From positions 62,001 through 126,000 of the forward strand of contig JAWMAR010000475.1 in NCBI GenBank assembly GCA_036785375.1: a DNA stretch of 64,000 bases. The letters run 5' to 3'. Below are positions 19,935-63,099 of this stretch, in pieces (position 1 is the first letter of the stretch; every line of letters begins with the position of its first letter). This stretch comes from Leucoraja ocellata. Taxonomy: Eukaryota. The translations under genes and the position numbers were made by a program. The notes under the pieces were generated by a model. It searched no databases. It was not told the origin of the DNA and saw only the letters and a program-made list of their open reading frames with translations.

Positions 19935-20484
19935 AAGAGTATTGTGTACAGTTTTGGTCTCCTAATTTGAGAAAGGACATCCTTGTGATTGAGACAGTGC
20001 AGCGTAGGTTCACGAGATTGATTCCTGGGATGGCGGAACTGTCATATGAGGAAAGATTGAAAAGGTTAGGCTTGTATTCACTGGAGTTTAGAAGGATGAG
20101 GGGGGTCATACAGAAACATATACAATTATAAAAGGACTGGACAAGCTAGATGCAGGAAAAATGTTCCCAATGTTGGGCGAGTCCAGAACCAGGGGCCACA
20201 GTCTTAGAATAAACGGGAGGTCATTTAAGACTGAGGTGAGAAAAAACGTTTTCACCCAGAGAGTTGTGAATTTATGGAATTCCCTGCCACAGAGGGCAGT
20301 GGAGGCAAATCACTGGATGGATTTAAGAGGGAGTTAGATAGCGCTCTAGGAGCTAGTGGAGTCAAGGGATATGAGAAGGCAGGCACGGGTTATTGATAGG
20401 GACGATCAGCCATGATCACAATGAATGGCGGTGCTGCCTCGAAGGGCCGAATGGCCTCCTCCTGCACCTATTTTCTATGTTTCT
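19935..20484 (+). mobile_element. CR1 LINE 3' end inserted in a PLE-derived repeat
   Basis: EYCVQFWSP..QRRFTRLIPG and a CR1 3' UTR. The flanks (about 19800-19934 and 20485-20526) are contiguous PLE-repeat sequence. Confidence 0.85.
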
Positions 20485-20559
20485 AAGCTGCCTAACCTGC
20501 TGAGTTACTCCAGCAATTTGTGTCCATATGTGGAGGGAAAGAACAGGAGGAGAACATCT

Positions 20560-21179: not shown

Positions 21180-23212
21180 AATTAAACTGAAGAAGGGTCT
21201 CGACCCTAAACGTCACCCATCCCTTCTCTCCAGAGATGCTGCCGGTCCCGCTGAGTTATTCCAGCATTTTGTGTATACCTTCGATTTAAACCAGCACCTG
21301 CAGTTCCTTCCTACACAAGAATTTAAAGTAATACTTAAGATTGAGATCTTCATGCAGAACAATACATTGAAGATTTAAATAGGCAACACAAGAGACTGCA
21401 GATGCTCAGCTGGAATCGTGCAAAATGATAAACTGCAGTTGGAACTCAGCCAGGTCAGGCACAGGACTGAGAGTGTGGAGAGGATAAAGTGAGTACCATG
21501 ATGTGATGAGGGAGGAGTATAGGAAGGAATCGCAGATGCTGGTTTATACAGAAGATAGACACAATATGCTGGAGTAACTCAGCGGGTCAGGCAGCATCTC
21601 TGAAGAAAAGAGATAGGTGATGTTTCGGGTCGGAATCCTTCTTCAGACAGGGCAAGATTCATTCAGAGTGAGAGAAGGATGGGATGAGAGAAGAAAAGAG
21701 GCAGATAGGGTCAGATCAGGCAGGGCAATAAAACTGGGAGATGGGTTGCTGGAGAGAGGGGAGGTTGGGAGAACTTGGATGGGCCAGGAGACAGAAAGGA
21801 ACACAAAGGGTGTGGGTAATTTAAAAATACAGTGTTTATACCGTAAGGTTGTAGGCTACCCAGACGGAAAATCAGATGTAGAAACAAGAACCATTATGAT
21901 TAAATACTTGAAACTTATTAACTGTATTGCGCTTCATTTGCGATTGTGTTGCGCGTTCATTTATTCTCTAGAATATCATATTTCACACATCACTGACTGG
22001 AATGCAAATCCAATTGTATTCAGTTTGGTTTTCAGTTATAAGTAACCAATGTGGAGTCAAATGGAGACACAAGGAACTGCAGATACTGGAATCTTATGTA
22101 GGTGCTGGAGTAACATAGGCAGCATCTCACGAGGATATGGATAGGTGGCGCTGCAGGTTGCAACACTTATAGATGGAAGGGGCCAAAGGAAGGGGATGGG
22201 GTAATGGGGGAAATGAGTACGCACCAGGGTGATGGAGGAGCACAGGAAAGAGATAGAGGAAAAAAGCGGGGTTGTTATCTAACATTTTAGAATTCAATTC
22301 AATTCAAGCTAACCAAGTAGAATATATAGTGCTATTCCTCTGGTTTGTGTTAGTCCTCACTCTAGCAATAGAGGAGACCAAGGACAGAAAGGTCAGTAAG
22401 AGAATGGGAAAGGGAGTTAAAATTATTAGCAACTGGGAGATCCAGAAGGCCTTGGCATAGGTGTTCGGCGAAATGGTCGCCTAGTCTATGCTTGGTCTCA
22501 CCTATGTAAACAAGGGCACCAAATGCAGCAGATGAGTTTAGATGTAGTTCCAAACTGCTTTGAAAAATGTAACTATATTTATTCTTAAAGCCATGCTGGG
22601 TCTCTGTCTAACTAGCTCACATTTAGACTTTAAGATCAACACAAAATGCTGGAGTAACTCGGCAGGACAGGCATCATATCTGTAGAGAAGGAATGGGTGA
22701 TGTTTTGGGTTGAGACCCGTCTTCAGACTGAGAGTCAGGGTAGAGGGACACTAGAAATGTGGAAGGGTAAGGTGTGAAACGACAGATCAAAGCAGACGAT
22801 TATCAAGGAAATGTAGACTAGTTCATTATTGGCTGAGGGAAAGGTGACAATGCTGCGTACAATCTGTAAAATTAATCAGGAGGATAGTGAAACTAGTCAG
22901 AGAAGTAGAGTGGGGGAAGGACAGAGAAAGAGGGAAAGCAAGGGTTACTTGAAGTTGGAGAAATCACATTTCATACCACTGGTTTGTAAGCTGCCCAAGT
23001 GAAATATGAGGTGCAGTTCCTCCAATTTGCGTTGGGCCTTACTCTGATAGTGGAGGAGGCCCAGGACAAAAACGGTCAGTATGGGAGGGGGAGTTAAATT
23101 GTTTAGCAACAGGGAGATCGCCGAGGCATAAGCAGACTGAGCGAAGGTGTTCAGCGAAACAATTGCTGAGCCTGCGCTTGTTCTCGCCGATATATAGGAG
23201 TCCACACCTGGA
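21180..23212. mobile_element. Cluster of Penelope-like element fragments (pLTR pieces and GIY-YIG remnants)
   Basis: - strand ORFs 22362-22553 (YIGETKHRLGDHFAEHL) and 23039-23308 (LLYIGENKRRLSNCFAEHLRSV); repeated TGCTGGAGTAACTCAGCGGGTCAGGCAGCATCT termini. Confidence 0.8.
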
Positions 23213-25070: not shown

Positions 25071-25089
25071 GCACATCTGATTTAGCATT

Positions 25090-25846
25090 GTTCAAGTAGG
25101 AACTGCAGATGCTGGAAAATCAAAAGTAGACAAAAGTGCTGGAGAAACTCAGCGGGTGAGGCAACATCTATGGAGCAAAGGAAATAGGCAACGTTACGGG
25201 CCAAAACCCTTCTTCAGACTGATGTAGGGTGGGGGGGGGGGGGGAGGGGAGAAGACAGGAAGAGGAGGAGTCAGAGGGCTGAGGGAGAGCTGCAAAGGGG
25301 AGGTAAAGCAACAAGTATAGCATCTCCTGTGGTTGCAAGGGAAAGTGGCTACCAGAAATTGGAGAAGTCAATGTTCAGGCCGCTGGGGTGCAGACTGCCC
25401 AAGCGGAATATGAGGTGCTACTCCTCCAATTTCCGGTGGTGCTCACTCTGGCCATGGAGGAGGGCCAGGACAGAAAGGTCGGGTTCAGAATGGGAGGGGG
25501 AGTTGAATTGATGAGTCACAGGGAGATCATGTTGGTTAATGCGGACCGAGCGGAGATGTTCGGCGAAACGATCGCCAAGCCTACCCTTGGTCTCACCGAT
25601 GTAGAGCAGCTGACATCTAGAGCAGCGGACGCAATAGATGAGGTTGGAGGAGGTGCAGGTGAACCTCTGTCGCACCTGGAATGACTTTTTGGGTCCTTCA
25701 ATGGAGTCGAGGGGGGAGGTAAAGGGGAATATATTCCCCCCCCCCCACATCAGTCTGAAGAAGGGTTTTGGCCTGAAACGTTGCCTATTTTCTTCGCTCC
25801 ATAGATGCTGCCTCACCCGCTGAGTTTCTCCACCACTTTTGTCTAC
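25090..25846 (-). mobile_element. Penelope-like element, 5'-truncated with inverted terminal copy and 16-bp TSD
   Basis: GIY-YIG ORF (FTCTSSNLIYCVRCSRCQLLYIGETKGRLGDRFAEH). About 110-bp inverted ends. CATCTGATTTAGCATT at 25074-25089 and 25847-25862. Confidence 0.92.
25752..25785 (+). ncRNA. Minimal hammerhead ribozyme motif in PLE inverted end
   Basis: CTGAAGAAGGGTTTTGGCCTGAAACGTT. The opposite-strand copy at 25187-25220 has GAAA changed to GTAA. Confidence 0.6.
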
Positions 25847-26589
25847 CATCTGATTTAGCATTTATATGCGTAAGCAGCAGCTTTGGCTTAATGATTTCTT
25901 GAATGTTCTTTATGTTTTTTCAATTAAGCTGCATTGCCTTACAACTATTTGCTTAAATTACAGAACACGAGACGCTACTTCACCTTTAAAATAATAATTA
26001 ATAGAATATACTTGTATGGGCTATACACGGCCACTCCTCCAATCATGAAAACAAAACTGTATTTAGGAGTAGCATTCTCTATGATCTCTGTTAGCTGAAG
26101 TACTATAATTTTCCAATTGCCTCGTCTCTAATTAAACCTGAAATAACTTGCACTGGCAGAGCTTTGTTTAAGAACCTTAGGAGACTCTAAAACATTGTTG
26201 CCAGAATCTAATGGATTGTTGTGTATGCAAGGCAGTTGTCAATTTGTAAGAAACAAGGCATCAGAAACAGTAACAGGAAATATGACCTGATGAGGTATAG
26301 TTAATTGAACCAAAAAAGTACTCCCTTTAAACAATGCCATTGGGTCTTTTATGCATAAATACACAGTAGTAAGTCTTCATTTAACATCTCATTCAATAGA
26401 TGAGAACTAAAATTGCCCAGCACCCCCATTCCAGGACTGTACTGCAGCATCAACATGGCTTTTGCACTGATGTCATAGGATCAGATGTAATCCATTAATC
26501 TTGAATTTAAGAGGTAAAAATACTTTTCCTTATCTCAATATATATATTTATTCATTAAAAAATGTCTAAGTATCCGAACAAAATATTTC

Positions 26590-26822: not shown

Positions 26823-28197
26823 TACGTTTCGGTTAGCTTATACTCTCCGTGAATTTGAAGCAATTTATGACTGGCATACAATCTTTGCTCCTTTGAAGAC
26901 GAGGGTATTTAAAGATCAAAACCTTAGTCCTTGCAATTGGGATGTATCGTGCAGCAGTTAACCATGCCCATCCATATGCTTCTGAGATTCGGATTTCCTC
27001 CAGCAGGCTCCTCCAAGGCACTAGAAAAATACCACCCATGCTTTCTCCACAGATAACCATATAACCATATAACAATTATAGCACGGAAACACTAGGAATA
27101 TAAATGTATTATGTTAAGATAATCAAAAAGGATGATGGAATGTTGAACTAAAACAAACTTTGAGATTGAGGGGTGGTGTATTGGTTTGTGCTGCTGCTTT
27201 GGCTCCAGAGACTGGGATTCCTTCAGGTGCCTCAGAATTGCTGGTTATATGAATTAATTAGAGAATCTGGGGAGTTAATGGAGATGCAAGAGGAGAAAAT
27301 GAAATACATATATTTGGTGTTTGAGGGTTGGTCAGCACAGAATGTAGCGGGTCCTTGGCTCTTTTCCCATATGGTATAATTCTATAAAAACTGCGACAAT
27401 TTAAATGTCAGAATTTAGAATATATTCCTAGTGTACATTTTAATGAACTATGATCAATCCATAAGAATTTTACAAAATAATTGATACAGTTAAGATCATT
27501 TTTGTCTCGCGGGTGTGGAATAAATAGGAATATAAGCTTGTAATCAGAGCCACACTAGTGAGTGCACCGTGCATACACATAACATGGCAGAACTGGCCAT
27601 AGTACGGGGAAAATGAATTGGAGTAAACCCTTGATGTAACAGATCGGGGGGGGGGGGGGGGGGGGGTGATGTTGCCCATTACTGCCAATTGATGGCTATA
27701 ACCTAGTAAGGTAATATTATTGTACTAGAAATCAAAAACAGCAGATGCTGGTTAATACACTAGAGGACACAAAGTGCTGGCGTAATTCAGCAGGTCAGGC
27801 AGCATCTTTGGAGAACATGAATAGCTGAGATTTTAGGTCGGGATCCTTTTTCAGACTGATTAAATCTGCTGAGTTACTCCAGCACTTTGTGTCGTTTCAA
27901 CTTAAAACTAGGCACCGATGCCACTGGTCTGCACCAGCAAGCTTTTCTCCACCAGCTGCCGCACCATCCAGTTGAAATGGCTGTTTTTGCGGCTCATGTT
28001 GTAGCCCCTGGGGCCAGCACTTTCTTCAGGCTGTCGCCACCGATAGTGCGCGCTGCCCCCCCCCCCCCCCCCCTCCTCAGCAGCTGTTGCTTCGTCCTGT
28101 TGGCCGTCACTCCTCCTGTCTGCTCCTCCACCGCCATCTCCTCCTTCTTCCGTCACTTTGTCCATTTCGTCACTCACCTCCTCCTCCAACCCCCAGT

Positions 28198-28478: not shown

Positions 28479-29143
28479 AAAGTCACCGACATTTTCCAAG
28501 CTGGAGTATGTGGGCAACTCTGGGGGAGGAAGAGGAGGAGGTGGGGAGAGGTCGAGTGGACAAAGTAATGACCAACAGAAAGAAGTGACAGCTGGTGAGA
28601 GGGGAGGTAGCCCCATGGTGAACAAGTCCTGTTGATGGCAGCAGCACAACAAAAGTGCAATCACCAGGGGCTACAACGTGAGCTGCAACAACAGCCACTT
28701 CAACCTGACCGTGCCACAGCCGGCGAAAGAAGGCGAGCCAGGGGTGGTGTTAGCAGGTCAGTCCACGATAACCAAAATCCATTACAAGAGTTCTGTTAAA
28801 ATGAGGGTTTACTATATGATGCTGTTTGGAAACAAAAGGAACTGCAGATGCTGGAATCTTGAGCAAAACACAAAGTGCTGGAATAATTCAGCAGCTCAGG
28901 CAGCATCTATGGAGGAAAATGCACAAACAATGTTTCTGATCCTTTTCTTTAGACTAGGATACCGATCCAAAATGTCATCTGTCCATTCTCTCCACAGATG
29001 CTGCCTGGCCCGCTGAGTTACCACAGCACATTGAGTGTTAGTAACAAGCTAATGGTCGGCACCAGTCTGCCGCCCATCTCCTGACATGGGGAAGATGGTG
29101 TCACCTCTGGACGGGCCTGCGACGAGGCCTCCCGAGTTACCCA

Positions 29144-37304: not shown

Positions 37305-37844
37305 CCCCACTCGCAAGACAACGCGGGGGCTCTCAAACATTGCTCTGACCCCCAGACAACTCCTGGCCTCCCAGACCACGCCGGGACTCCAGCCTCCTCA
37401 TTAACCGAATGTCAACAGGCATCTTCCCTGTCTTTTTTTGTTCCCTGTTCAGCGCTGGTTTAAATGGTTGATAAATGGTTTAAAACTCAGACCAGCAAAG
37501 GGCCAATGTCAGGGTGCGTTCTTAATATTTTATCAAAAACAAACTAGCTATACTGTGGGGTGAAAGTGCTGGAGGAAGTCAGCAGGTCAGGCAGCATCTG
37601 TTGAGCAGAATGGACAGACAATGTTTCGAGTCGAGCTCTTATTTAGATTTTGTGGTTTGCTCGAGATTCCAGCATTTGCGGACTCCTGTGCCTACAGATA
37701 CTGGAAATCTGAATAAGACTCTGAAAATGATTGAATTACTCAGCAGGTCAAGCAGTAAATATAGCAAAAAAAATCAATTAACGTTTTAGAGAAAGGCAAG
37801 AGACACAAATGTTGAACAAAAACCAGGGGTCACAGTTAAAGAAT

Positions 37845-40322: not shown

Positions 40323-40789
40323 GTAAGAAAACTACACTATAGAACAATGATTAAAATAATTTGTACAAAGTGGCTTTGGTATATTGACAGTGGAGGGTGA
40401 ACCATTACATTTTGCTAGGGATAAATATGTGAAAAGGAAGTCAGTTGACTTCATTTGTAACCGAGGTACAGTGCAAAGCTTTTTGCTGCGTGCTAACCAG
40501 TTAGCAGAAAGACTACATGGTTACAATCAAGCTGTCCACAGTGTACAGATACATGATAAAGGGAATAACGTTTAGTGCAAGATAAAATCCAGTAAATTCC
40601 AATTAAAGATAGTCCGAAGGTCTCCAGTGTCCCCAAGTGACACAAATAAAATCCAAGGGTCTCCGATAACACTAGTTATTAGTATTACAATAGTAGTATT
40701 ACAATAGTATGCTACTATACATTAAAATGTCAGGAAGCACTCCATTAGCCCTTTTGGTTCAAAATGTCTTCCTCTGACTTGAATGGTCC

Positions 40790-43130
40790 ATTTCTTTTAT
40801 TTTCTTTTTTTTTTTTAATATTTTTATTAGAAGTAGACATATTATAAAGTATAGTTACATATTATAGTAAGAAGACTTTTCATATACATCAGTCATACAT
40901 TATTAAAATTTTCAATTATCAATTACTTCTGCTTCTAGTGTTTTTATTTTTTTTATAGAAAAAGAGAGAAAGAGAGGGTAGAAAGTTACAAATAAAAAAT
41001 TAAAAAAACCCAGAAAAACAAAGGAGGTGGAATGGATTACCTGTAATACGTCAATGGAGATAGGTTCGTAGATTATAAAGTATAGCTTTTCATCTGATCC
41101 TGAGTTCAAGTTTCAGTTGGGTCCTCGTGCTGTGCCAATCTATCCCTTCAGATAGTTAATGAATGGAGCCCAGATTTTATCGAAAAGGTCTTGTTTGTCC
41201 ATTAAGACAAGTCTAATTCTTTCTAAGTATAGGGTCTCCGACATTTCTGTAATCCACATTTTAATTGTGGAGGTCGTAGGGCCTTTCCAAAATTTTAATA
41301 TTAATTTTTTCCCAATTATTATACTGTAGTCGAGGAAATTTCTTTGGTTTGTTGTGAGTGTTAAACTTTGTTCTGATATTCCAAGTATTATTAATTTCGT
41401 GTCTGGGTCCAGTTTTGTATTAATAACTTCTGAAGTTATTTCAAAAATATCAGTTCAGAAATGTTTATGTTTTATACAGTTTGTAAACGTATGTGTTAAA
41501 TTAGCCTCTAGATGTAGATATTTATCACAAATAGGAGAGATTTGTGGGAAGATTCTATTTAGTTTTATTTTAGAGTAGTGTAGTCTATGTAAGACCTTGA
41601 ATTGGATTAAAGTATGTCTGGCATTTAATGAACATTGATGTATTTGTTGTAAACTTTCGTCCCACATATCTTTCGTTATAGGGTGACCTATTTCATTTTC
41701 CCATTTGTATCTATATGGTTCGGACGGTGGTACCTCGTTGTTTAGTAGGGTGTTATAAATATAAGCTATTAGTTTTTCAGTATTGGGATGCTTGTTCAAA
41801 CATTCATCAAGAATTTCTGATTCTCTACTCCTGTAGACTTGTGTATTAGATTTAACATAATCTCTAATTTGTAGATATCTGAAGAAATTATTTGAGTGCA
41901 GTCCATAATTCTGTTGTAACTCTTGAAATGAAAGAAAAGTGCCTTTCCCATAAAGATGTCCTATATTTTTGATTCCATAATTTTTCCATTGCGTGACACC
42001 TTTGTCCATAAAGGATGATTTGAATAAAGGATTATTTACAATGGGAAGGCATAGTGGTATATTATTCAATTTTAAATATTTTTTTATTTGTTTCCAAATT
42101 CGTATTCCATTATGTATTATGGGGTTTTCTTTATAGGTTTTTTTGTGCAGTTTTGTGGGGGCAAATATGATCGGTCCAATTTCAAAAGGTAGACAGTCTT
42201 CCTTTTCCATCATTAACCAATCTGGTTGTTGATTCATTTCTTCCAGCCAGAAATTCATGTTTTTAATATGCACTGCCCAAAAATAAAATAAGAAATTTGG
42301 CAAAGCCAAACCTCCATTTATCTTTGACTTACATAAATGTTTTTTACTTATTCTATGATTCTTATAATCCCAGACAAAACTTGTAACAATGGAGTCGACT
42401 TTTTTGAAAAAAGTTTTTGGGATATATATCGGAATTAATTGAAGTAGGTACAGCAGTTGCGGTAAAAAAATCATTTTTATAGCATTAATTCTCCCAAGCA
42501 TAGAAATAGGGAGTGTTTTCCATTATTGAATATTCTTATGTAGTTTATTCAGTAAGGGTGGGAAATTTAGTTTAAATAAAGAGATATATGTCTTAGTTAC
42601 ATAGATTCCTAAGTATTTAAATTTATCTTTAACTTTTTTAAAAGGGGATTGTTGTATTGTATGTAAATTGAATTTTGTTATTGGCATGATTTCGCTTTTA
42701 TTCCAATTAATTCTATATCCCGAAAACTGACCAAATTGAGTTATTAGATTTAATAGGTTTGGAATACTAGTTTCTAACTTTGTAATATATATTAGTACAT
42801 CATCTGCATATAAGGAGATTTTATTCCTTGTGTCTCTAGTATTGTATCCAAATATTCCTGGATGGTTTCTAACGCTTTCTGCTAGGGGTTCGATTGCAAG
42901 AGCAAATAATAGTGGGGATAGTGAACATCCTTGTCTACAGCCTCTAGAGAGATTAAATTTAGTTGATAACATTTTGTTTGTTAATATTCTGGCTGTTGGA
43001 TTAGAATATAACAATTTAACCCATGTACAGTATTTCTCTCCTAGTTTAAATTTTTCCATCACCGAAAATAAATATGGCCATTCTACCTGGTCAAATGTTT
43101 TTTCAGCATCTAACGAGATAATTGCTAGAA
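40790..43130 (-). mobile_element. L1-clade LINE, 5'-truncated ORF2 (RT to C-terminal) in the LRRD1 intron
   Basis: RGCRQGCSLSPLLFALAIEPLA, ISLYADD, FKYLGI, GRINAIKM and GGLALPNF; Cys/His C-terminal region; A-rich tail; in-frame stops. Confidence 0.92.
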
Positions 43131-43364
43131 ATGGCTAAACCATTTTGTTGCACTGAAAAGTGCAATGACAATAACATTGAATCCAATCCAAAATGGCAGA
43201 CGTTTTCAGGATATTTCTAAGATTTGAGACAGGCATATCAATTTTGAATGCATCATTAGAGTTCTTGGTGGCGAAGATCCAGAGAAAGAGGGATAGTCAG
43301 GACTTCATTTCCTCCCTCTACTCGTCCTCACCAATTTCACCTTCTCCTGTTATGTCCTCTGAAG

Positions 43365-44599
43365 TTCAGATTCAATTTTAATTTAATTGTCATTGTCAGT
43401 GTACAGTACAGAGGCAACGAAATGCATTTAGCATCTCCCTGGAAGAGCGACATAGCAAACGATTTGAATGAATAATAATAAGTGTCCGGGGGGGGGTGGT
43501 GATTGGCAGTCACCGAGGTACGTTGTTGAGTAGAGTGACAGCCGCCGGAAAGAAGCTGTTCCTCGACCTGCTGGTTCGGCAACGGAGAGACCTGTAGAGC
43601 CTCCCGGATGGTAGGAGGGTAAACAGTCCATGGTTGGGGTGAGAGCAGTCCTTGGCGATGCTGAGCGCCCTCCGCAGACAGCGCTTGCTTTGGACAGACT
43701 CAATGGAGGGGAGCGAGGAACCGGTGATGCGTTGGGCAATTTTCACCACCCTCTGCAATGCCTTCCGGTCGGAGACAGAGCAGTTGCCATACCATGCTGT
43801 GATGCAGTTGGTAAGGATGCTCTCGATGGTGCAGCGGTAGAAGTTCACCAGGATCTGAGGAGACAGATGGACCTTCTTCAGTCTCCTCAGGAAGAAGAGA
43901 CGCTGATGAGCCTTCTTGATCAGAGTAGAGGTATTGTGGGTCCAAGAGAGGTCATCAGAGATGTTGACTCCCAGGAACCTGAAGCTAGAAACACGTTCCA
44001 CCTCCGTCCCGTTAATGTGGATGGGGGTGTGCGTGCCGCCTCTGGACTTCCTGAAGTCTACAATGAGCTCCTTGGTCTTCTTGGAGTTAAGGGCCAGGTT
44101 GTTGTCAGCGCACCATGCTGCTAAGTGCTGGACCTCCTCCCTGTAGGCCAGCTCATCGTTGTTGCTGATGAGGCCAATCACCATTGTATCATCTGCATAC
44201 TTGATGATGGTGTTAGTACCATGTACAGGTGTGCAGTCATAGGTGAAGAGGGAGTAGAGGAGGGGGCTCAGCACACAGCCCTGTGGAACGCCGGTGTTCA
44301 GGGTGAGGGTTGAAGAGGTGTGCTTGTCTAACCTCACAGACTGGGGTCTGTTGGTTAGAAAGTCCAGTATCCAGTTGCAGAGGGAGGGGTCGATGCCCAG
44401 GTTACCGAGTTTGGTGATCAGTTTTGATGGTATAATGGTGTTGAATGCTGAGCTGTAATCGATGAACAGCATTCTTACGTAAGTGTCTCTGTTGTCGAGG
44501 TGGGAGAGGGCGGAGTGAAGTGCCGTTGAGATGGCATCCTCCGTACTCCTGTTCTTGCGGTAGGCAAACTGATAGGGATCCAGTGTGGGGGGTAGACAG
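43365..44599 (-). mobile_element. Young Rex1/Babar LINE, 5'-truncated, uninterrupted RT-to-stop frame
   Basis: The 371-codon ORF 43510-44625 has no stops through [26 protein letters not shown] and FLG. Confidence 0.95.
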
Positions 44600-45635
44600 C
44601 CCCCCACACTGGACCCTTGGAACAAGTGCAGATAGCAACAACTAACCCGATTCCACTCCGCTCAACCTCATCTTTCACTCTCTTTCAAAGCTCTAACAAG
44701 ATATCAATGACCAAGCACCATCGTTTAGTTTCTCATGACTCCTATAAGATGCCAAGTGGAATTTAACTGTAACAGTGTGAAGTTTTGCATTTTGGTAAGT
44801 CAAACCAGGGAAGGTTTTATTCCGTAAATGGTAAGACCCAGGAGAGTATTATAGACACACTGGTATACAGGGTGGTGAAGAATGCTGCATTTATTGGTAA
44901 GGGTATTGAGTACAGGAGATAGGACATCATACTACAGCTGTGAAAAACATTAGTGAGATTGCTTTGATTTAAATGGGAGGACGTTGCTTTTCTGGAATGG
45001 GCTGCCAAAGGAAAACTAGAGGGAGTACAATAGTAATGTTTTAAAGACATTTAGACAGGTACATGGATTGATAAGATTTGGAGGGATATGGCCGAAATGC
45101 TTATTTATAAAATCTGGTCATCATGAAAGAGTTGGATGAAGCGCCTGTTTCTGTGCTGCATGACAAAATAACTCTAAGACAGAGTAAAACTGTTTTATTA
45201 AATTACCTCTGAATATTCATACTAACATTTGGCTATCCCTGTATCATAAAAATTCTACTGTCGGTAAAATATTTTAGCTAATCTGTACTAGCTCCTGACA
45301 TGCCTGTCTACGCCCGACTGTGGAATCTTTTCCCTGGCAATGCAATCATCAACGACTTCTGTAACTATCTCTCCTTGTTGCAATGGCGCTCTGTTATGGA
45401 ATGCATTCCTTTGAGGTACCACCACCACCATTACCAGTCTTAAAAGCTGAACACTAGTTTTAGATAACCGTCATCCAGAAGATTTGTGCAATTACAACCT
45501 TTGGGATGGCTACCCATTTACTGTCCTGAACTTGCAGGATAGCCAGGTCTTATAACTTTCAACTAGAAAATCTTAGCTTTCACTGTTCCCTTTTGGAAAT
45601 GGTGATTGGTCCCCTTGATTAACAGTGTGTTAATC

Positions 45636-46048
45636 TTTCTTTGGAGCGCAGAAGGTTAAGGGGGGGACTTGATAGAGGTTTTTAAAATGATGAGAGGGAT
45701 AGACAGAGTTGACGTGGAAAAGCTTTTCCCACTGAGAGTAGGGAAGATTCAAACAAGGGGACATGACATGAGAATTAAGGGACTGAAGTTTAGGGGTAAC
45801 ATGAGGGGGAACTTCTTTACTCAGAGAGTGGTAGCTGTGTGGAATGAGCTTCCAGTGAAGGTGGTGGAGGCAGGTTCGTTTTTATCATTTAAAAATAAAT
45901 TGGATAGTTATATGGATGGGAAGGGAATGGAGGGTTATGGTCTGAGCGCAGGTATATGGGACTAGGGGAGATTATGTGTTCGGCACGGACTAGAACGGTC
46001 GAGATGGCCTGTTTCCGTGCTGTAATTGTTATATGGTTATATGGTTAT
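45636..46048 (+). mobile_element. CR1 LINE 3' end
   Basis: RGNFFTQRVVAVWNELP; (TTATATGG)n tail. Confidence 0.9.
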
Positions 46049-46577
46049 TATATTACCAATTTGTGCTGAATATGATGCCTACTTAAACTAATCACTTCCT
46101 TTCTGCACATGATCCATATTACTCCATTCCCTGCATATTCATTAAGACTTAAAACTGAAACTCTATCAGACTTTTGCAACGGAAAGATATTATCCAGGTG
46201 GACAGAAGAAAATTATCCACGAGTAATTGCAACATCCCCACTGACTCCTGGGAATTTCTGGCCCCTGACCAGTTTAATTAAAAGATGAGCATTCAGGCTG
46301 GTATTGAGACCCATAGACCCACTAAACAATCAGAATAGACGACAAACCAAGTTCCACGATAATTCTCAACAAGAGAATTCTTGCCCAGCAAGAATGCGTT
46401 AGCAGCCTCTTACTCTACCTATCCACTCATAACTGTTGCAAATTCTGCTCTAACTCCACTTACATTTGCTGCTGACACCACCGTAAAGGGGTAGAATTCA
46501 AACAATGTTGAGACAGAGCACAGGAAAGAGTTAGAGGGCTTAGTAACATGGCATCAAGACAACAACCTCTCCTTTAA

Positions 46578-47089
46578 GGTTACACAGAAAAGCTGGAGAA
46601 ACTCAGCGGGTGCAGCAGCATCTATGGAGCGAAGGAAATAGGCAACGTTTCGGGCCGAAACCCTTCTTCAGACTGATCGGGGGTGGGGGTGGGTCGGAAC
46701 AAGAAAGGGAAAAGGAGGAGTAGCCAGAAGGCTGGAGGGTGGGAGGAGATAGTAGGGGAGCTGAGGAAGGGGAGGAGACAGCAAGGACTAACAGAATTGG
46801 GAGAATTCGAATTCTCATATAACATCGAATTCTCCCAATTCTGTTAGTCCTTGCTGTCTCCTCCCCTTCCTCAGCTCCCCTACTATCTCCTCCCACCCTC
46901 CAGCCTTCTGGCTACTCCTCCTTTTCCCTTTCTTGTCCCGACCCACCCCCACCCCCGATCAGTCTGAAGAAGGGTTTCGGCCCGAAACGTTGCCTATTTC
47001 CTTCGCTCCATAGATGCTGCTGCACCCGCTGAGTTTCTCCAGCTTTTCTGTGTAACCTTCGATTCTCCAGCATCTGCAGTTCCCTCTTA
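46578..47089. mobile_element. PLE-derived foldback insertion: 235-bp inverted arms, 14-bp TSD
   Basis: Arms 46576-46810 and 46825-47059 differ by one base seen by eye. TSD AACCTCTCCTTTAA at 46564-46577 and 47090-47103. Confidence 0.93.
46961..46994 (+). ncRNA. Minimal type I hammerhead ribozyme motif (PLE-associated)
   Basis: CUGAAGA-A-GGGU(UUCG)GCCC-GAAA-CG-UU: intact core boxes, helix II with a UUCG loop and palindromic AACGUU at helix III. Mirror copy on the - strand at 46641-46674. Confidence 0.7.
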
Positions 47090-48184
47090 AACCTCTCCTT
47101 TAATGTCAGCAAGAAAAAAGAGCTAGTCATTGACTTCAGGAAACAAGTTAGTGTACACGCCTTGAGTCAGCAACAATGGTGCTGAAGTGGAGATGGTTGA
47201 GTGCTTCAAGATCTTGGTGTAAATATCACTAACAATTTTGCCTGATCCAACCACAATAACACAACGGCCAAGAAAGTGCACCAACTAATGGAGCTGCTGC
47301 CTCACAGTGCCAGACACCCGGATTCGATCCTGACCTTGGGTCTTGTCTGTGCACATTCTCCATGTGGCTGCAGGGTTTCCTCTGGATGCTCCGGTTTCCT
47401 CCCACATTTCAAAGATGTTTGGGTTTGTATGGTCAACATTTACACTTCCTTGAGAAAGCAGCCAACATAATCTAGAAGCACGTATCCAGTCATTCTGTCC
47501 TCTCCCCTCTCCCTATGGGCATGAAAACACATACCACTAAATTCAGCAATAGCTTCTTCCCTGCTGTTATTAGATAACTGAAACAACCTCTCATAAGCTA
47601 ACGATGTAGTAACGATTTCTCAACCTACCTCGTTACATCCCTTGCACTTTTTTTCATCTGCACTTTCTCTGTAGCTGCAACACAAGATTCTGCACACTAA
47701 TTACTTTACTCTCTGCATGATCTGTTGTACTTGTGCATGGTGTGATTGTATTCATGTATGGTATGATTTGACTAGGTAGCATGAAAGACATTTTTTTACT
47801 GTGCACACATGGCAAAATAAACCAATACCCTTTCCTGCTGTGCGTCAGAGTCAGTTTTGGTACCACAGACCTGGCCACCGCTGCTGTTTTCTCCTGAACA
47901 GTCACCACCCCCAACATCCATGGAATCATACAGCATGAAAACTGTCACTTTGTCCAATTCATCCATGCAAACCAAGATGCCGATCTATGCTAGTCCTGAT
48001 TTCTCACATTCGACCCATATCCCCCCAAACACTTTTTTATTCATGGACCTATAAAATATATTTTAAATGTTTCTATTGTACTTGCCTGAATCACTTCATC
48101 TTGTAGCTCGTTCCATATAGATACTGCCCTCTGTGTGGAAATGTTGCCCCTTAGATTTTCATTAAATCTTTCTCCTCTCACCTT

Positions 48185-49732
48185 AAGAGAGTCTTTTCAG
48201 AGGACAAAAGAGCCGGAAATCTCCAGGACCTGACAATGTTTTCCCCTCTACTCTTAAGCTCTGTGCCAAACAGCTGGCACCGGTCTATACAGACATTTTT
48301 AACCAGTCCCTGAAAACATGTACTGTCCTTGCCTGCTTCAAAGTCTCCACTATTGTCCCTGTACCCAAAAAGGCAAGGATTACTGGTCTTAAAGACTACA
48401 GGCCTGTCGCACTGACCTCTGTAGTCATGAAGATACTTGAAAGGCTTGTGCTGGCCAAGCTGAAAAATATCACAAACCCTCAGATGGATCCTCTGCAGTT
48501 TGCATATCATACCCATACATCTGTGGATGATGCAGTCAACCTGGGCCCGCACTTCATCCTGCAGCACCTAGACCACCAGGGGACCTATGCGAGGATCCTG
48601 TTTGTTGATTTTGGCTCTGCATTCAACACCATTGTGCCAGAACTACTACACTCCAAACTTTCCGAGTTGACTGTGCCTGAACCCCTCTGTCAGTGGATCA
48701 CCAACTTCCTGACAGACAGGAAGCAGCATGTGAGGCTGGGAAAGCACATCTCGGAACCGCAAACGCTCAGCATAGGAGCACCGCAAGGCTGTGTACTCTC
48801 CCCTCTCCTCTACTCTCTCTACACCAACGACTGCACCTCCACAGACACCTCTGTCAAGCTTCTCAAGTTTGCGGACGACACAACCCTGATTGAACTGATC
48901 CGGGATGGGGAGGAATCTGCCTACAGACAGGAAGTGTCACAGCTGGCATCCTGGTGCTGTAGCAACAACCTAGAGCTCAATGCTCTTAAGGAGGTGGAAT
49001 TGATTGTAGACTTTAGGATAGTTCCCCCTCCCCTCACCCCACTCACCATCAGCAACACCACAATCACATCTGTGGAGTCCTGGGAACCATCATCTCCAAT
49101 GACCTTAAGTGGGGGGGCTACCATCGACTCCACAGTAAAAAAAGGCACAAGAGGATGTACTTCCTACAGCAGCTGAGGAAGCACAATCTACCATAGGCAA
49201 TGGTGGTCCAATTCTACACGGCCATCGTAGAGTCTGTTCTCACCTTCTCCATCATGGCCCGGTTTGGCTCAGCCACCAAGCACAACACCGGAGGCTGCAG
49301 CGAATCATCCGATCAGCAGAGAAGGTTATTGGCCGCAACCTTCCCTCGATTGATGAACTGTACACTGCAAGGGCCAGGAAGCGAGCGGGCAAGATCATCT
49401 CTGACCCCTGCCACCCTGGCCACAAACTCTTTGAATCACTTCCCTCTGGAAGGCGACTACGGATTGTCAAAGCTGCAACAGCCAGACATAAAAACAGCTT
49501 TTATCCACGAGTAGTTGCTCTACACAACAGCCAAAAATTTGTAGCCTCCCTTTGATCTGGTATTTTGTTGGTTCACATGCTTGATCAATGGTGTTTTATC
49601 ATTAATGTTTTATTATTATTAATGTTTAGTGTTTTCTGAGTCATTCGTAACTGTCACTGTATGTCATGTTGTTACTTGTGGGTGGAGCACCAAGGCAAAT
49701 TCCTTGTATGTGAATACTTGGCCAATAAACTA

Positions 49733-49792
<60 letters not shown>
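48185..49792 (+). mobile_element. Rex1/Babar LINE fragment with (TTAC)n tail
   Basis: 249-aa RT ORF 48427-49176 (DPLQFAY, GAPQG, FADD); AATAAA followed by about 15 TTAC units at about 49733-49791. Confidence 0.92.
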
Positions 49793-50889
49793 GCCCTTTA
49801 TCATAGAGTGATACAGTGTGGAAACAGGCCCTTTGCCCAACTTGCCCACATCAGCCAACATGTCCCAGCTACACTAGTCCCATCTGTCAGCATTTGGCCC
49901 ATATCTCTCTAAACCTGTTCTATCCATGTCTAACTATTTCTTAAATGTTGGGATAGTCCCTGCCTCAACTACACTCATCTGGCAGCTTGTTCCACGCTTT
50001 GTGTAAAAAAGTTACTCCTCAGGTTCCTATAAATCTTTTCCCCTTCACCTTAAACCTATGTCCTCTGGTCCTCAATTCACCTACTCTGGACAAGAAACTG
50101 TGCATCTACACGAGACTATGCATCTATTCCTCTCATGACTTTATACGCCTCAATAAGATCACCCCTGATCTTCCTGCACTCCATGGAATAGAGTCCCAGC
50201 CTACTCAACCTCTCCCTATAGCTCAGACCCACCAGCCATGGCAACATCCTTGTAAATCTTTTCTGTACCCATTCCAGCTCTGGTCTTTGATTTCCCTACC
50301 CTGGATAAACGATTGTCTGCATTCATCCCATTGATGTCACTCATGATTCCATACACCTCCTGAAGATCACCGCTTCTTCTTCTTGCGTATGGCGTGCACA
50401 GCCTAAAGTTGTAAGACAAATTGTTCCGTTTGATCTTCTGTTTGTGCATGCCAGGTTGATTGCATTTATCGAAACAGAGTGGACCAGTTGAAGGTTGCAA
50501 TCTCCTACCCCAAGATCACCGCTCAGTCTTCTATTCTCCAGGAACAAAGTCCCACCCTGCTATATCAATAGCCTCTCCTCTGCTCTCAAATCTAGCATCA
50601 TAAACAATAAGCTCATCTGGTAGATGGGTGCTGTTGCCAGAGATAGCCCCCAATTTTGGTTTGTAACCCATGATGGTATTCTGGTCCTGCCACAGTCATC
50701 TAGAATCTACTTGATCAAACCAAGTCTCCAACTTACTTTTGAAGCCTCTCTTGGCATTGCTGATCATTTAATGGAGATCATACTTGGCCTTTTGTACAAT
50801 GCAAGACCATCCATAGGTCTGGCAAGAACTCAGGGCATGGATAGGAATGTGTGACAGAGACGTTATAGCCATTATAGATTTTGGCTAAG

Positions 50890-52465
50890 GGAGGGACACG
50901 ACAGGATCAATGTTCCAGAGTACAGGGGCTACAGCCAAGATAGAGATTGGGGTAAAACAAGAGAGGTGATTGCTTTATTGATTAAGGAGAACATAACAGC
51001 AGTTGTCCAAGATGACTTTCCTGAAAAATCAACAGTGAATCTACATGAACAGTACTGAGAAATAAAAAGTGGATTATCGCCTGATACATAGATACATAGA
51101 TACATAGATACATAGAAAATAGGTGCAGGAGTAGGCTATTCGGCTCTTCGAGTCTGCACCGCCATTCAATATGATCATGGCTGATCATCCAACTCAGTAT
51201 CCCGTACCTGCCTTCTCTCCATACCCCCTGATCCCTTTAGCCACAAGGGCCACATCTAACTCCCTCTTAAATATAGCCAATGAACTGGCCTCAATTACCT
51301 TCTGTGGCAGAGAATGCCAGAGATTCACCACTCTCTGTGTGAAAACTGTTTTTCTCTGATTGTGATTGTTCCATTAACCCGCAAATAGTCAATGGGAATT
51401 GCAGAAACAAATATGTCATGAGGTTGCAGACAGCTGCAAGACTAAAAGCATTGTCATAGTTGTGGATTTCAACCGTACTAATATAGATTGAACTGCCATA
51501 CAGTTAAGGGCTTAGATGGGGTGGAATTTATCATGTGTGTTGAGGAAGGTTTCCTCAGGTAATTTAAAGAGAGCCCTACAAGGGAGAGGGCAATGCATGA
51601 CATGCTCAGGGAATAGGGCAAGGCAAGTGGCAAAGTTGGTGAACTTTTTGGAACCAGCGACCCCTCTTCTATTAGCTTTAAAATAATTATGGATAAGGAC
51701 AGAGTTGATCCAGAAGTTAAAGTTCTAATTTGGGAAAAGCCAGCTTTGAGCCTGCAAAGTTGTTTGCAGTACCGGTAGTTGGTCGCTGTAAAAGGGATGT
51801 CCGGAAAGTGGGATGCCTGTAAAAGGTCATAGAGCAAGTTCAAGGTATGCATGTTCCTGTTATAGTGAAGGCCGAGGCATGTGGTAATAAGAATCCTGGG
51901 ATGGTGAGAAGTATTGAGCCTCTGGTTAGGAAAAAGGAATTAGAAAGAAGGAAGCTTGATCTGATTAGGTAGCTGGGATCAAGTGTATCCCTAGAGGAGT
52001 ACAGGGGATTGAAGTGCATACTTAAGGGAATCAGGAGGGCAAAAGGGGCGCCCGAGTAAGCCCAGACAGATAATATTAAAAAGAATCCAAAGAGATTTTA
52101 TACTAAAGGAAAAAGGGTAATTGGAGAGAGAATAGTGCCACTCAGAAACCAAAGTGGTCATTAATGTATGGAGCCACAAGAGGTGGGCAAGGTCCTCAAT
52201 GGATATTTTTCTTCTTTTTACTGCAGAGAAAGACATGAAGACTAGGCGGTTTATGAAAGTTAGTGGCAATGTCTTGAGGACACTCAGTGTTACAGATGAG
52301 GAGGTGCTAAATGTGTCATACAATGTAGAAAGGTATATAAATCTACCAGGAATCTACAAGACTAAGAGGTATTGCTTTTTGGGAAGTCAAACAAGGGCAG
52401 GACATTCGCAGTGAATGATAAGGCCCTGGGGACTATTGTAGAGCAGAAGGAACTCAGAATACAAG
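50890..52465 (+). mobile_element. Old CR1 ORF2 fragment with a younger - strand CR1 3' end nested at about 51085-51355
   Basis: Degenerate endonuclease and RT-linker sequence (GGVALLIK-like, GDFN-like, NPKRFY). The nested piece has a (CATAGATA)n tail. Confidence 0.7.
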
Positions 52466-52539
52466 TGTCAACAAAGTTGGCCCCTGGGCTTGTCTCATTT
52501 GCCTGCATTTGGACAATATCCCAATATCCCTTCCTCTTG

Positions 52540-53165
52540 GATCGGTGGGGGCGCTGCAAGCCGGCAGACCTGTCAGTAGCGTGTTAGTTTTTTTCAACTT
52601 TTTTTTTTTAGTGTGTTTAAATGCATGTTTTTAATGTTTCTCTGTGTGTCTAGTGTGGGGGTGGTGTGGGGGGGTAAGGGGGAAACCGCTTTGGTCGCCT
52701 CCTCCATGGAGAGGCAACTTTTTCCATGTCTCCTCCCCCGGGGCCTAACATCGAGGATCGGGCAACTGGAGACGTGCCCGGGGCTTCAGCTGCGGGCGCA
52801 GCATGGACTCTCGGCGTGGAGCGGGCGAGCCGGAATGGAACGCTCCGTTTCGCTGGCCCGCGGTAGCCTGAAGCCGCGGCGCGGTCTGCAGTGCTCCAGC
52901 TGGCGCGGCATCCGCAGCCTGGGAATCCCTCATTGGAGACCCGGGAGAAGAAGAAGCTCCCGCGGCCCACTTCTACCACGGGCGTGGCGGCGACTTACCA
53001 TCAGGAGTGGGGTCCCTCGCCGAGGACCCCTGGAGGGGAGCTTCAACCGCCAGCCCTGCGGTCTGTGGTGCTTCTGGCTGTGGCCTGGCGGGAACTTTAA
53101 ATCTTCGACCGCCGGCCTGAGGCCTACACCAACATAAAGCCGCGGTCTCCGGTGGTGGAGACACC
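52540..53165. repeat. Unclassified CpG-rich interspersed repeat
   Basis: Sharp GC/CpG-rich block between unrelated TE fragments; no recognisable protein in any frame. Confidence 0.45.
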
Positions 53166-53175
53166 ATTTCAGCAC

Positions 53176-54240
53176 TTACCTTGACTCTTTGTAGTATTCG
53201 TCATGTAGCGATGAGGGGATCATGACATTGTGGCCCTTAACTATGACACCATCCTGTATTACTAGTTTGTCGCGGACTAAGAAGAACGGCTGCACCTCTG
53301 TTGGTACGCTGGATTGTCTGTCTCGCCAGCCTCTTTTGATTATGGATGAAAGTATCTGGAGGGTAGCGTCGGCAGCTGTGTGTTCGGCTAAGCGGCGCAG
53401 TTGTTTTGTAGGAACAAAGTCAATGCTGAGAACCGTAAACTTGTCTTGTTCATTAGGGGTGTCGTTCGTTGGATGCCCATGGTGCGCAAGAGAGAGTGTC
53501 CGCAACGAGCATGTCTTTACCCTTCTTGTAAACAAGTTTAAAGTCAAATCGTTGGAGCTGCAGCATCATACGCTGCAGACGTGCAGGTGCTGCGTGAACA
53601 GGTTTGTTGACGATCGTCACCAGGGGTTGGTGGTCTGTCTCGACCGTGAAAACATTGCCAAAGATGAAATCCTTGAATTTGGAACAAGCGAAGACAACAG
53701 CCAGCAGCTCCTTCTTGATTTGCGAGTAGCGCTGTTCGGTGTTGGTCATGGTACGGGAGGCATAGGAGACAGGGCGCAAAGTTCTATCGGCAGATGATTG
53801 TAGGCAGGCTGCGCCGAGTCCGAATCATGAGGCATCGCAGGTAACTGTCACTGGGTGCTTCATGTCAAAAAATGTCAGGTTGGTGCGCTGGTCAGCTTCA
53901 ATCTGGAGGGTGTCCCCTGCTGCCATCTCACTTCTGGGTTCACCACCTCCTTTTAATTTTTCTGGCGAAGGGGGAGAGGACTTGGTCCGTACGCATTCAG
54001 GCCGTATTAGTTGACCGCCTAACAGATATGGCGAGTATGTTTGAATTCTCATGACATGTGTGCTTACCATATTCACTCTTTACGGGGAAGGATGTAGATT
54101 GGTTTATGCATGAGAACCAATCATAGTAGAATAGCATCACTAACACCACCCTACTGTACGATTTATGCTAACACCCACTTCCTACATTAGTCAGTCTTGG
54201 AAGCGGTCACGATGTACTAACAACTAACGACCTGCTGTAC
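53176..54240 (-). mobile_element. Second Gypsy fragment (RNase H/linker), apparently internally deleted
   Basis: VTVTCDAS, PVSYASRTMT..YSQIKKELLAVVFAC and ETDHQPL..RLQRMMLQLQRFD. The upstream end is approximate. Confidence 0.8.
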
Positions 54241-55242
54241 CCTTATAATATGGACACTGATTAAAGATGATCTTGAACTTCAGATTGTATTCTTTGGCTA
54301 TTTACACTTACCATCTCAATCATCTGACTAAATCTCCACAATAGTTTGCACGTTAAATATACAAGAATAATTTGAAAATATCTAAATTAAATACCATTTT
54401 GTTCTTCTGTACTATTTCCCGCCTTTGGTGAAACTGTAAATGCAAGTGGTAACCCCTGACATGCAGGTTTCCCATTATAATGATGAGTAATTGCTGAAAC
54501 TTCAGACCATTTCTGGGGAGTGTGAAATATGGGAGATGTTCACAGTTACTCAAAGTCATCAAAGATTAGTAGTTTCACCACTAGCTTCCGACACATTTGG
54601 GCTATCATAACTAATGTGAAATTGCACAAATCCAGATCAGCAGCTAAAAGTGGTGAAACCCAGCTTATGGTATTGTGTACACTGGTAAAGGGCATTGATT
54701 AAGTGCTAGAATGATAGAAAAGGGGTACAGGGAAGTTACCAGCATCTGGTCTGACTAGTTATGTGATGTGTATTAATCTCCACACACTGGGCAATAAATA
54801 AAATTGAGAAGAGAAATCGTTTACTTGCAAAAATAAATCAGCTTTATAGCAGTTCATAGCCAGTTTGAAACCTCGCAGCATGATCATTCCATTAATAGGG
54901 CCTTGGATGCCATTAGCAGTCCTCCAAGCACAAGCTGTCTGGGCCATTCTCTTTTTTTATTTTAAATGGCATGACTCATTTCATTCTTCTGAAGGTGGTC
55001 ACTATACCTTAAACTCATAGAAATTTAGTTGATTTCCAATTGCGCTCTGAAATGGTTATTCTATACAAGGGTATTTAGGGATAGGCAATGGATGCTGACC
55101 TTGACAGTGCCGACTACAACCTTTATATGAATTAGAAATATTACTGCTCAGTACCGGAGGAATTCAGTTTGCTAATTGTATAGTGTATCATTCTGGACTT
55201 ATTAACAATTAGATTGCCCTATAAAAAGGATGATTTACTTTT

Positions 55243-55996
55243 ATCTTACATGGTAAATGGTAGGGAATTGAAGAACAGAGGGATCTGGGAATAACTGTGC
55301 ACAGTTCCCTGAAAGTGGAATCTCATGTAGATGGGGTGGTAAAGAAAGCTTTTGGTGTGCTGGCCTTTATAAATCAGAGCATTGAGTATAGAAGTTGGGA
55401 TGTAATGTTAAAATTGAACAAGGCATTGGTGAGGCCAATTCTGGAGTATGGGGTACAATTTTCGTCACCTAATTATAGGAAGGATGTCAACAAAATAGAG
55501 AGAGTACAGAGGAGATTTACTAGAATGTTGCCTGGGTTTCAGCAACTAAGTTACAGAGAAAGGTTGAACAAGTTAGGGCTTTATTCTTTGGAGCGCAGAA
55601 GGTTAAGGGGGGACTTGATAGAGGTCTTTAAAATGATGAGAGGGATAGACAGAGTTGACGTGGATAAGCTTTTCCCACTGAGAGGAGGGAAGATGCAAAC
55701 AAGGGGACATGACTTGAGAATTAAGGGACAGAAGTTTAGGGGTATCATGAGGGGGAACTTCTTTACTCAGAGAGTGGTGGCTGTGTGGAATGAGCTTCCA
55801 GTGAAGGTGGTGGAGGCAGGTTCGTTTTTATCATTTAAAAATAAATTGGATAGTTATATGGATGAGAAAGGAATGGAGGGTTATGGTCTGAGCGCAGGTA
55901 TATGGGACTAGGGGAGAATACGTGTTCAGCACGGACTAGAAGGGTCGAGATGGCCTGTTTCCGTGCTGTAAATTGTTATATGTTATATGTTGTTAT
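55243..55996 (+). mobile_element. CR1 LINE 3' fragment, ending about 170 bp upstream of an LRRD1 exon
   Basis: 204-aa intact RT C-terminal ORF 55297-55911; TTATATG tail. Confidence 0.93.
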
Positions 55997-56162
55997 ATGG
56001 TAAATCTTAGAGAAATAGAAATCCACGTGGGGGGAATGATTCTGGTGAGTGTGAAATGCAGGAACATTTCGGTACAGGTATAATGGGATTCCTTTGGAGA
56101 ATAATGCAGCTGAGAATACAGAATTTTCCCTAATTTTCCAGTGTATCTTTTTCCTTTTACAG

Positions 56163-62335: not shown

Positions 62336-63099
62336 GTAAGTATATAATGCTCAATAATATATCAGGCAACATTCTGTTTATCTGTTTATTATTAACAGTG
62401 CAAAATCTAATTATGTGACAATGGCTTACAGGTTCTTTAATTCAATCAACGTCATTTTAATTCTAAATGCCACTGTCCTGCCTGAGACTTCTTGCATGAG
62501 GCTTAACGAACAACATTATCTCACCTACTATCTGGGCACTTGAATTCCTCAACTTTAGGTGACTCACTCACTCTGACTGCATCAGGACTGGTCATTTATA
62601 TGTGACATTGATTTAATTTTTCTCTCTCCATTATCGAACCTAATGTTCTGGGCATGTCCCACTCCTAATAGCAATACAAAACACAGATCAACAAGGATAC
62701 GTCACCACTAATCCATTCGATCTAGTATCAAACTATCACATATGTTCCCTTTGCCCTATCCATACCCGTCACCACTTTCTTTGCTACTTTTTTTAATCTC
62801 TTTCGAAACAATAAACTGCAGATGTTGGCCTAAAAAAAAGTGCTAGAATAACTAGCTGATGTGATGTTTCGGGACGTTTCAGGTCAGGAGAAGAAAATCC
62901 TGAAGAAGGGTGTCCGAGCTTTACCTATTCACGATCGCCTGACCCCACTCCAACACTTTGTGTCTTTTTTTGCATAAACCCTTCCCCAGATCTGACAAAG
63001 TGTAAACCCAAAATGTGAAACTTTTTTCTACAAATGCAGCCTGACCTGCTGAGTGTTTCTAGTATTGTCTGTATTTATTTTATTATTCCTTTATTTCAG

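Follow-up and report, generated by a model that had tools for sequence, protein, structure and literature searches.

The host locus

The window (the whole stretch of 64,000 nucleotides that was analysed) is repeat-rich vertebrate DNA that contains an mTERF gene and an LRR gene. The former is seen as a single-exon ORF on the minus strand (17247-18515), and the latter as a multi-exon gene on the plus strand (38844-62300) with a large first coding exon and further exons near 56163 and 62174. For the LRR gene the initial annotation used the name LRRD1, which rests on synteny with MTERF1. Protein searches leave this name unconfirmed, two being without a match and one giving generic LRR proteins; in one search with the LRR gene an LRRD1-like cluster appears, but at rank 11 only. 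Copies of a tRNA-like SINE are found at 11432-11505 and 47288-47430, the latter about 200 bp downstream of the insert described below (ARAGORN: one tRNA-Tyr). A GC-rich imperfect tandem region occupies 13552-15258, with short internal inverted repeats at 13678-13800 and 14371-14491.

The insert lies inside a 15.8-kb intron of the LRR gene, where it splits a decayed LINE reverse transcriptase (Table 1). The two flanks of the insert overlap at residues 188-191 of the query, which corresponds to the TSD, and the LINE fossil is contiguous across the insert.

Table 1. Positions of the insert, of its parts and of related PLE sequences in the window.
Feature	Position	Strand	Remarks
LRR-gene intron holding the insertion	40323..56162	+	GT..AG, phase 0
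Host LINE reverse-transcriptase fossil, left part	46326..46575	+	up to query residue 191
Host LINE fossil, right part	47090..47299	+	resumes at query residue 188
Left TSD, 14 bp	46564..46577	+	last 2 nt (AA) match the element too
Left arm, without tail: PLE 3' end as an inverted and 5'-truncated copy	46576..46810	-	
Junction palindrome, 16 bp	46801..46816		
Junction filler, ATTCTC + ATAT	46811..46820		family contigs have endonuclease-coding letters at the same place
PLE GIY-YIG endonuclease ORF, last 8 codons and stop (NIEFSQFC*)	46821..46847	+	P0003 ends GMNIEFSQFC; sibling copy ends NIDFSNF
Pyrimidine-rich 3' untranslated part of the PLE	46848..46956	+	
Minimal type I hammerhead motif, right arm	46957..46998	+	cf. 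Cervera and De la Pena 2014
Minimal type I hammerhead motif, left arm	46637..46678	-	core starts at 46671; limits mirrored from the right-arm motif
PLE tail, right arm only	47060..47092	+	30 nt (33 including AAC common to the TSD)
Right TSD	47090..47103	+	contigs beginning exactly at 47090
Head-to-head pairs (seven)	10784-10938, 19802-20529, 25097-25856, 27735-27894, 28836-29038, studied insert, 62812-62972		
Older sibling insertion	25074..25862		TSD 15-16 bp, one-arm tail, endonuclease fragment, short tail-less inverted arm

Structure of the insert

The left arm is complementary to the right arm (46825-47059) at 234 of 235 bases, the sole mismatch being 46698/46937. The divergence between the arms is 0.43% (1/235; 95% interval 0.01-2.4%), and with only one mismatch between them the insertion is young, provided that no later homogenisation of the arms took place. 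Between the arms lies a spacer of 14 nt, ATTCTCATATAACA, and the arm junction carries the perfect palindrome GAGAATTCGAATTCTC. The window contains 16 perfect palindromes of at least 12 bp and three of at least 16 bp, of which GAGAATTCGAATTCTC is one. The TSD, AACCTCTCCTTTAA, has two occurrences in the whole window, and its chance probability is about 3e-7 over 61 candidate positions. It is clear that the 235-nt arms with one mismatch, the 14-nt spacer, the palindrome and the 14-bp TSD were all described correctly in the initial annotation. The symmetry that it had ascribed to the foldback applies to the arms, but not to the insert as a whole, given that the right arm alone runs 30-33 nt further into the PLE tail (47060-47089/92). 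The reported lack of an ORF is likewise correct for a full ORF, but the stretch 46821-46847 encodes the end of the PLE endonuclease (NIEFSQFC*, the asterisk being the stop).

Public sequencing runs were examined over 46785-47500, and comprised four of the 24 listed: the DNA runs X2 (second sample of organism A), X4 and X7 (organism C), and the RNA run X23 (organism B). The best-matching runs, X1 and X3 of sample S1, were left out. In the three DNA runs, 56, 49, and 20 family contigs have endonuclease-coding letters upstream of 46821 (agreement 0.69-0.79), and for this reason positions 46811-46820 of the insert are read as junction filler. The first six of these letters, ATTCTC, are the reverse complement of the GAGAAT just before them; this right half of the palindrome is non-family sequence at that position, and was presumably made as a snap-back copy.

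An ATG within the pLTR (47014-47055) opens the frame MLLHPLSFSSFSV*. Other copies contain similar frames, which may mark where the PLE ORF begins, as is the case in further PLE pLTRs. Compared with 1007/3404 RNA reads, the insert shows one additional base at 47054.

The PLE family and inverted pairs in the window

The PLE origin proposed at the outset is borne out by the endonuclease C-terminus, the tail and the hammerhead motif of the pLTR. By its sequence, the insert derives from an EN+ PLE with a C-terminal GIY-YIG endonuclease. The sibling region 25421-25720 matches GIY-YIG with an E value of 6.5e-4 and 20.4 bits, under the cut-off of 22.6, and is 61% identical to the RT+EN protein P0002, which lies above the GIY-YIG cut-off. 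In protein searches a PLE fragment matches Leucoraja erinacea and Rhincodon typus best, which points to a cartilaginous fish as the host. A CX4CxxC linker is present in relatives (P0001, P0002, and 25293-25349), the linker region being outside the insert itself. The Neptune clade is marked by a CX2-5CxxC linker ahead of GIY-YIG together with CCHH; such a linker is shared with Nematis and absent from Penelope/Poseidon according to Craig et al. 2021 (PMC8557442). The linker in the relatives thus points to a family nearer Neptune/Nematis than Penelope/Poseidon. A literature search, mostly of papers free of subscription, found no description of this PLE family in skates or rays, and patterns made from the hammerhead region gave no matches in metagenome contigs, prokaryote genomes and viral contigs.

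A profile of the PLE 3' module was run on the window and gave 25 hits at E<0.01, nine of which are the profile seeds, with none below E 1.6 in five shuffles. These hits include seven head-to-head pairs in which both partners have E<0.01, pairs being defined post hoc by orientation and adjacency. Six of them are independent: the pairs at 10784 and 27735 (P1/P4) have the same junction and the same flanks and were counted once, while the junctions otherwise differ. Two pairs with a weak partner, 37647-82 (E 0.22) and 38230-55 (E 2.5), were excluded from the seven, and 10 profile hits have no partner in this count. The tail is found on exactly one arm in 7/7 pairs, and the other arm ends at profile position 95-107. 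The pair 19802-20529 is interrupted by another repeat. A recognisable TSD is kept in two of the nine candidate pairs and missing in the other seven, and arm-to-arm local alignment gave no information for P2a, P6, and P9.

The older sibling insertion has a 16-bp palindrome at its junction, GGGGAATATATTCCCC (25724-25739), around AT-only filler, and this palindrome and that of the studied insert are two of the three perfect palindromes of at least 16 bp in the window. After the endonuclease stop the sibling carries a coding fragment of the linker zinc finger (25293-25349, minus strand), which suggests a template jump. The regions 10716-10973 and 27669-27929 have common flanks and an old PLE inverted junction, at 75% identity, and it seems that a PLE stump was carried and amplified there by another repeat. 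A cluster of older PLE pieces at 21184-23212 includes some in partial-tandem (direct pLTR) order, together with minus-strand fragments of the endonuclease. At 37563-37786 a degenerate pair is seen, made of a long tail-less arm and a tail-only partner and followed by another antisense copy.

Origin of the insert

Both outer ends of the insert are the PLE 3' end, one with the tail and one halting at the tail boundary. We are confident that a PLE with an endonuclease inserted here recently, in 5'-truncated form and as a single event, and we consider it fairly probable that this insertion was formed by twin priming. By this route the element's enzyme would have cut the two target strands with a stagger of 14 bases and copied PLE RNA from each nick, so that both target ends would bear 14-nt 3' overhangs. 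The bottom-strand nick would have primed at a start site at the tail end and the top-strand nick at one about 30 nt inside, either on a single RNA template or on RNAs of one source locus. The cDNAs would have halted within 4 nt of each other (46821 and 46825), and would have been joined at the self-complementary GAATTCGA through a 6-nt snap-back copy and the ATAT filler. The target homology of the outer ends is only 2-3 nt.

Twin priming is favoured because the two outer ends of the insert match the two RT start sites of PAc, a PLE of Anolis: its purified protein nicks and extends both strands, and reverse transcription begins at two sites that bracket the tail (PMC11167929). Both arms share the minority letter G46940, where about 97% of the family depth in X2 has C, and this, together with the presence of the tail on one arm only, suggests that priming was coupled on one RNA or one source locus. 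If the ends chose their start sites independently, the one-tail rule would have a probability of 0.5^6, about 0.016, and coupled priming is therefore an extra assumption of this explanation. It also counts against twin priming that the junction can equally be read as a single cDNA folding back, and that the element studied in vitro belongs to the Poseidon clade, whereas the family here looks Neptune-type. A stricter version, in which twin priming is obligate and an RT-endonuclease dimer uses one RNA on both strands, at the two start sites on either side of the tail, with an AT-filled snap-back join, is put forward only tentatively; if true, it would account for the strict one-tail rule and for the 16-bp palindromes in both copies with an intact TSD. 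No paper that proposes twin priming for PLEs was found in the literature search, which was mostly of papers outside subscription.

The same one-off insertion could have been made by fold-back self-priming of one cDNA, in line with the single fold-back event considered in the initial annotation; we regard this as less likely, but as a serious rival. In that case the cDNA primed at the tail end would have stopped at 46821, gained ATAT and re-copied GAGAATTCGA. Its TCGA end would then have paired with an upstream TCGA, leaving a 14-nt loop, and would have been self-copied back as far as a resolution at the tail boundary, with the other target end joined via AA/TT. The almost identical arms with minority letters common to both, the arm ends no more than 4 nt apart and the junction palindromes of the insert and of 25724-39 are all in line with this route. 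Indeed, Arkhipova et al. 2013 (PMC3846280) take such palindromes as a sign of self-priming, and the tailed arm is the longer one in the sibling 25074-25862 and in P1/P4, as the model demands. Nonetheless, self-priming needs a separate cause for the stop at the tail boundary, a position that in another PLE is a start of reverse transcription in vitro (PMC11167929). It also cannot make the pair 37563-37682, with its long tail-less arm and tail-only partner, although this partner is weak (E 0.22) and the region complex; the degenerate pair would, if real, suit twin priming. Genome-wide counts of young copies could separate twin priming from self-priming.

Hammerhead motifs and predicted RNA fold

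The hammerhead cores proposed for each strand are both present, with CUGAAGA starting at 46964 on the plus strand and at 46671 on the minus strand. The right-arm motif consists of CUGAAGA (46964-70), an extra A, helix II (GGGU-UUCG-GCCC), GAAA (46984-87), and CG-U-U, and the predicted cut follows GUU, after 46991. It has the consensus features of the minimal hammerheads of PLEs, agreeing with the descriptor CUGANGA(N), helix II of 3-7 bp, GAAANNUH and palindromic 15.2-16.2. In helix I only U-G and G-C are contiguous pairs, followed by A x C, so that the helix has 2 bp and falls below the at least 3 bp of the published descriptor. The assignment as a minimal type I hammerhead is kept, with the motif filed as a 2-bp helix I variant, of the kind published for D. 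virilis and Oikopleura, and not as a descriptor hit. A reading of GUU as a defect of the motif was dropped, GUU being common in the published alignment of minimal hammerheads (PMC4209133). An Rfam search gave no hammerhead match at E<=10, and sub-threshold miRNA-like matches were dismissed as chance or structure-only, caused by the long hairpin.

In isolation, the motif has a predicted probability of about 0.002 of adopting the hammerhead fold. The predicted fold of the whole insert has -522.6 kcal/mol (z = -47 versus 100 shuffles), and within it the predicted pairing probability of helix II is about 1e-20 on both strands, with the core at most 0.3% unpaired. Each strand has one motif and the antisense copy is transcribed before it. 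For a minimal hammerhead tested by others, the monomer was inactive and the dimer weak (PMC4209133), while the Anolis motif required protein and was dispensable for insertion (PMC11167929). With a single dimer-dependent motif per strand, preceded by its exact antisense, self-cleavage at the locus is unlikely, and the working ribozyme that had been envisaged here is not supported. In the host pre-mRNA the insert is predicted to form a 235-bp hairpin that would bury the hammerhead. This agrees with the earlier expectation of about 235 bp of dsRNA in the pre-mRNA, as a predicted hairpin in an intron of a plus-strand LRR gene, the name LRRD1 being unconfirmed.

An effect of the insert through RNA in the host gene, either by self-cleavage of the pre-mRNA or by editing or dicing of the hairpin with a regulatory outcome, is considered very unlikely. 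The intronic position in a plus-strand gene, the very stable predicted hairpin and the intact catalytic residues would allow it. These are set against the predicted burial of helix II and of the core on both strands, the single motif per strand, the short helix I, and a site that is apparently empty in other animals and hence not conserved. The insert encodes no protein, and with the hammerhead buried in the predicted hairpin it probably rides along passively in the host gene. If polymorphic, an intronic hairpin of 235 bp would permit an allele-specific test of RNA editing. None of the listed RNA runs carries the stretch. The RNA run X23, which is fragmented, comes from another species and was read to about 5%, has 11,575 family reads, equal on both strands, with none in the junction bin and no pile-up of ends, and says nothing on editing or cleavage at the locus.

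Copy number and empty sites

Each DNA run gave about 80-93 thousand contig pieces on 46785-47500. The summed contig depth, which is not equated with copy number, is 1.7-2.3 million at 46833-56 and 27-47 million at 47001-24, with the 3' module about 15-fold deeper than the endonuclease end. The junction-side bin (46785-808) has depths of 17.6 (X2), 0 (X4), and 61.6 (X7), and contigs of the unique flank have 21-50. The junction region is thus at no more than about single-copy depth. The source of the non-zero values in X2 and X7 is untraced, and hairpin contigs may drop out in assembly. An amplified junction would nevertheless be expected to be far deeper than what is seen in these three DNA runs.

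The initial annotation had left two options, a one-off event or a MITE-like family, non-coding and with ribozymes, whose whole foldback would multiply as a unit, mobilised in trans. The depths argue for the former, and the latter is now highly improbable. MITEs and foldback DNA transposons are short non-coding inverted repeats flanked by a TSD. The dominance of short non-coding copies, seen in the deeper 3' module and in unrelated letters upstream of the hammerhead, is what such a family would give, and the untraced junction-side depth in X7 and X2 could be counted in its favour. However, that depth stands against 1.7-2.3 million in the neighbouring arm bin, and the loose ends at 46821 run on into endonuclease sequence and not into junction filler. 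The junctions also differ between pairs, and the junction shared by P1/P4 comes with shared flanks, so that another repeat carried it. Unlike those transposons, the insert is the 3' end of a retroelement with asymmetric termini, which together with the 14-bp TSD suit PLE integration, and it begins inside an autonomous ORF. Amplification of the whole unit, with the same junction between different flanks, was not encountered in the window and the three DNA runs.

Two flank contigs of X2, of 120 and 95 bases, show no difference from the window. A contig of 573 nt from X2 aligns from exactly 47090 with no differences, the 453 bases before being unaligned, and a contig of 1837 nt from X7 aligns from exactly the same position with 3 differences, after 1725 unaligned bases. 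From where these alignments begin, the site is read as apparently empty in X2 and X7, which represent a second individual and a related species. The insertion is real, young and probably polymorphic, and its youth, claimed from the start, is upheld by the single arm mismatch and by these apparently empty sites. No listed contig or read of X2, X4, X7, and X23 on 46785-47500 spans the central junction, and the runs of sample S1 were set aside, but an assembly artefact from a fold-back read chimera is barely credible for an insert that returns to unique flank, is bounded by an exact duplication of 14 bp with which the frame of the host LINE is restored, carries a one-sided tail and one arm mismatch, and has the same architecture as older neighbours.

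At 46958-46974, immediately upstream of the hammerhead, the letters of many family contigs are unrelated to the family, and in X4 antisense family letters occur before 46974 in 72 contigs. Breakpoints may cluster at the hammerhead, or the near-palindromic helix II may have affected the mapping.

Comparison with known systems

The inverted copy, one-sided tail, TSD, palindrome and opposite-strand hammerheads are all already in print. Published PLE insertions have an inverted 5'-truncated copy with a tail of 30-40 bp at one end (Craig et al. 2021, PMC8557442), or an inverted pLTR with a 9-bp TSD, a 31-bp tail and junction palindromes (Arkhipova et al. 2013, PMC3846280), and dual minimal hammerheads lie on opposite strands 100-700 bp apart (PMC4209133). 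The insert is alike in its 5' truncation, adjacent inverted copy, one-sided tail, TSD (variable among EN+ PLE insertions), junction palindrome and pLTR hammerhead. It is unlike them in that only the last 8 codons of the ORF are kept, which results in a near-perfect 0.5-kb foldback, and its TSD has 14 bp versus 8-10 bp in the Adineta examples. It is therefore an ordinary product of PLE insertion, of the usual kind for its family in the window, and not a new mobile family. The value of the insert is that of a clean specimen, in which the TSD, both putative start positions of reverse transcription, the junction filler and an apparently empty allele can all be read. The origin of tandem and inverted PLE structures has been called undefined (PMC8557442), and tens of thousands of family pieces with polymorphic empty sites could settle how PLE inverted repeats form.

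In L1 twin priming, an inversion is made at insertion without duplicating the 3' end.

PAc, a Poseidon element of Anolis carolinensis (Frangieh et al. 2024, PMC11167929), resembles the insert in its ends at two positions bracketing the tail, an AC-containing sequence downstream of the hammerhead, an AT-rich target and little target homology (2-3 nt in the insert). It differs in that relatives of the insert's family have the Neptune/Nematis CX4CxxC linker, and the start sites of reverse transcription are here read from the insert ends. With the metazoan PLE minimal hammerheads (Cervera and De la Pena 2014, PMC4209133) the insert shares CUGANGA with an extra base, G10.1-C11.1 and GAAA-CG-U-H, without helix III, and GUU is common in their alignment; the difference is the helix I of 2 contiguous bp against the 3-bp descriptor. 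The word shark is absent from the main text of that paper, and a search of one supplement file gave no occurrence of shark, Leucoraja or Callorhinchus. Non-LTR retrozymes, reported in one chondrichthyan (Li et al., bioRxiv 10.64898/2026.07.22.740005), are also non-coding, PLE-derived and equipped with a type I hammerhead, but they are built of tandem units with at least two hammerheads on the same strand, while the insert has one per strand in inverted arrangement. With one intact core per strand and no tandem same-strand units, identity with a retrozyme was excluded.
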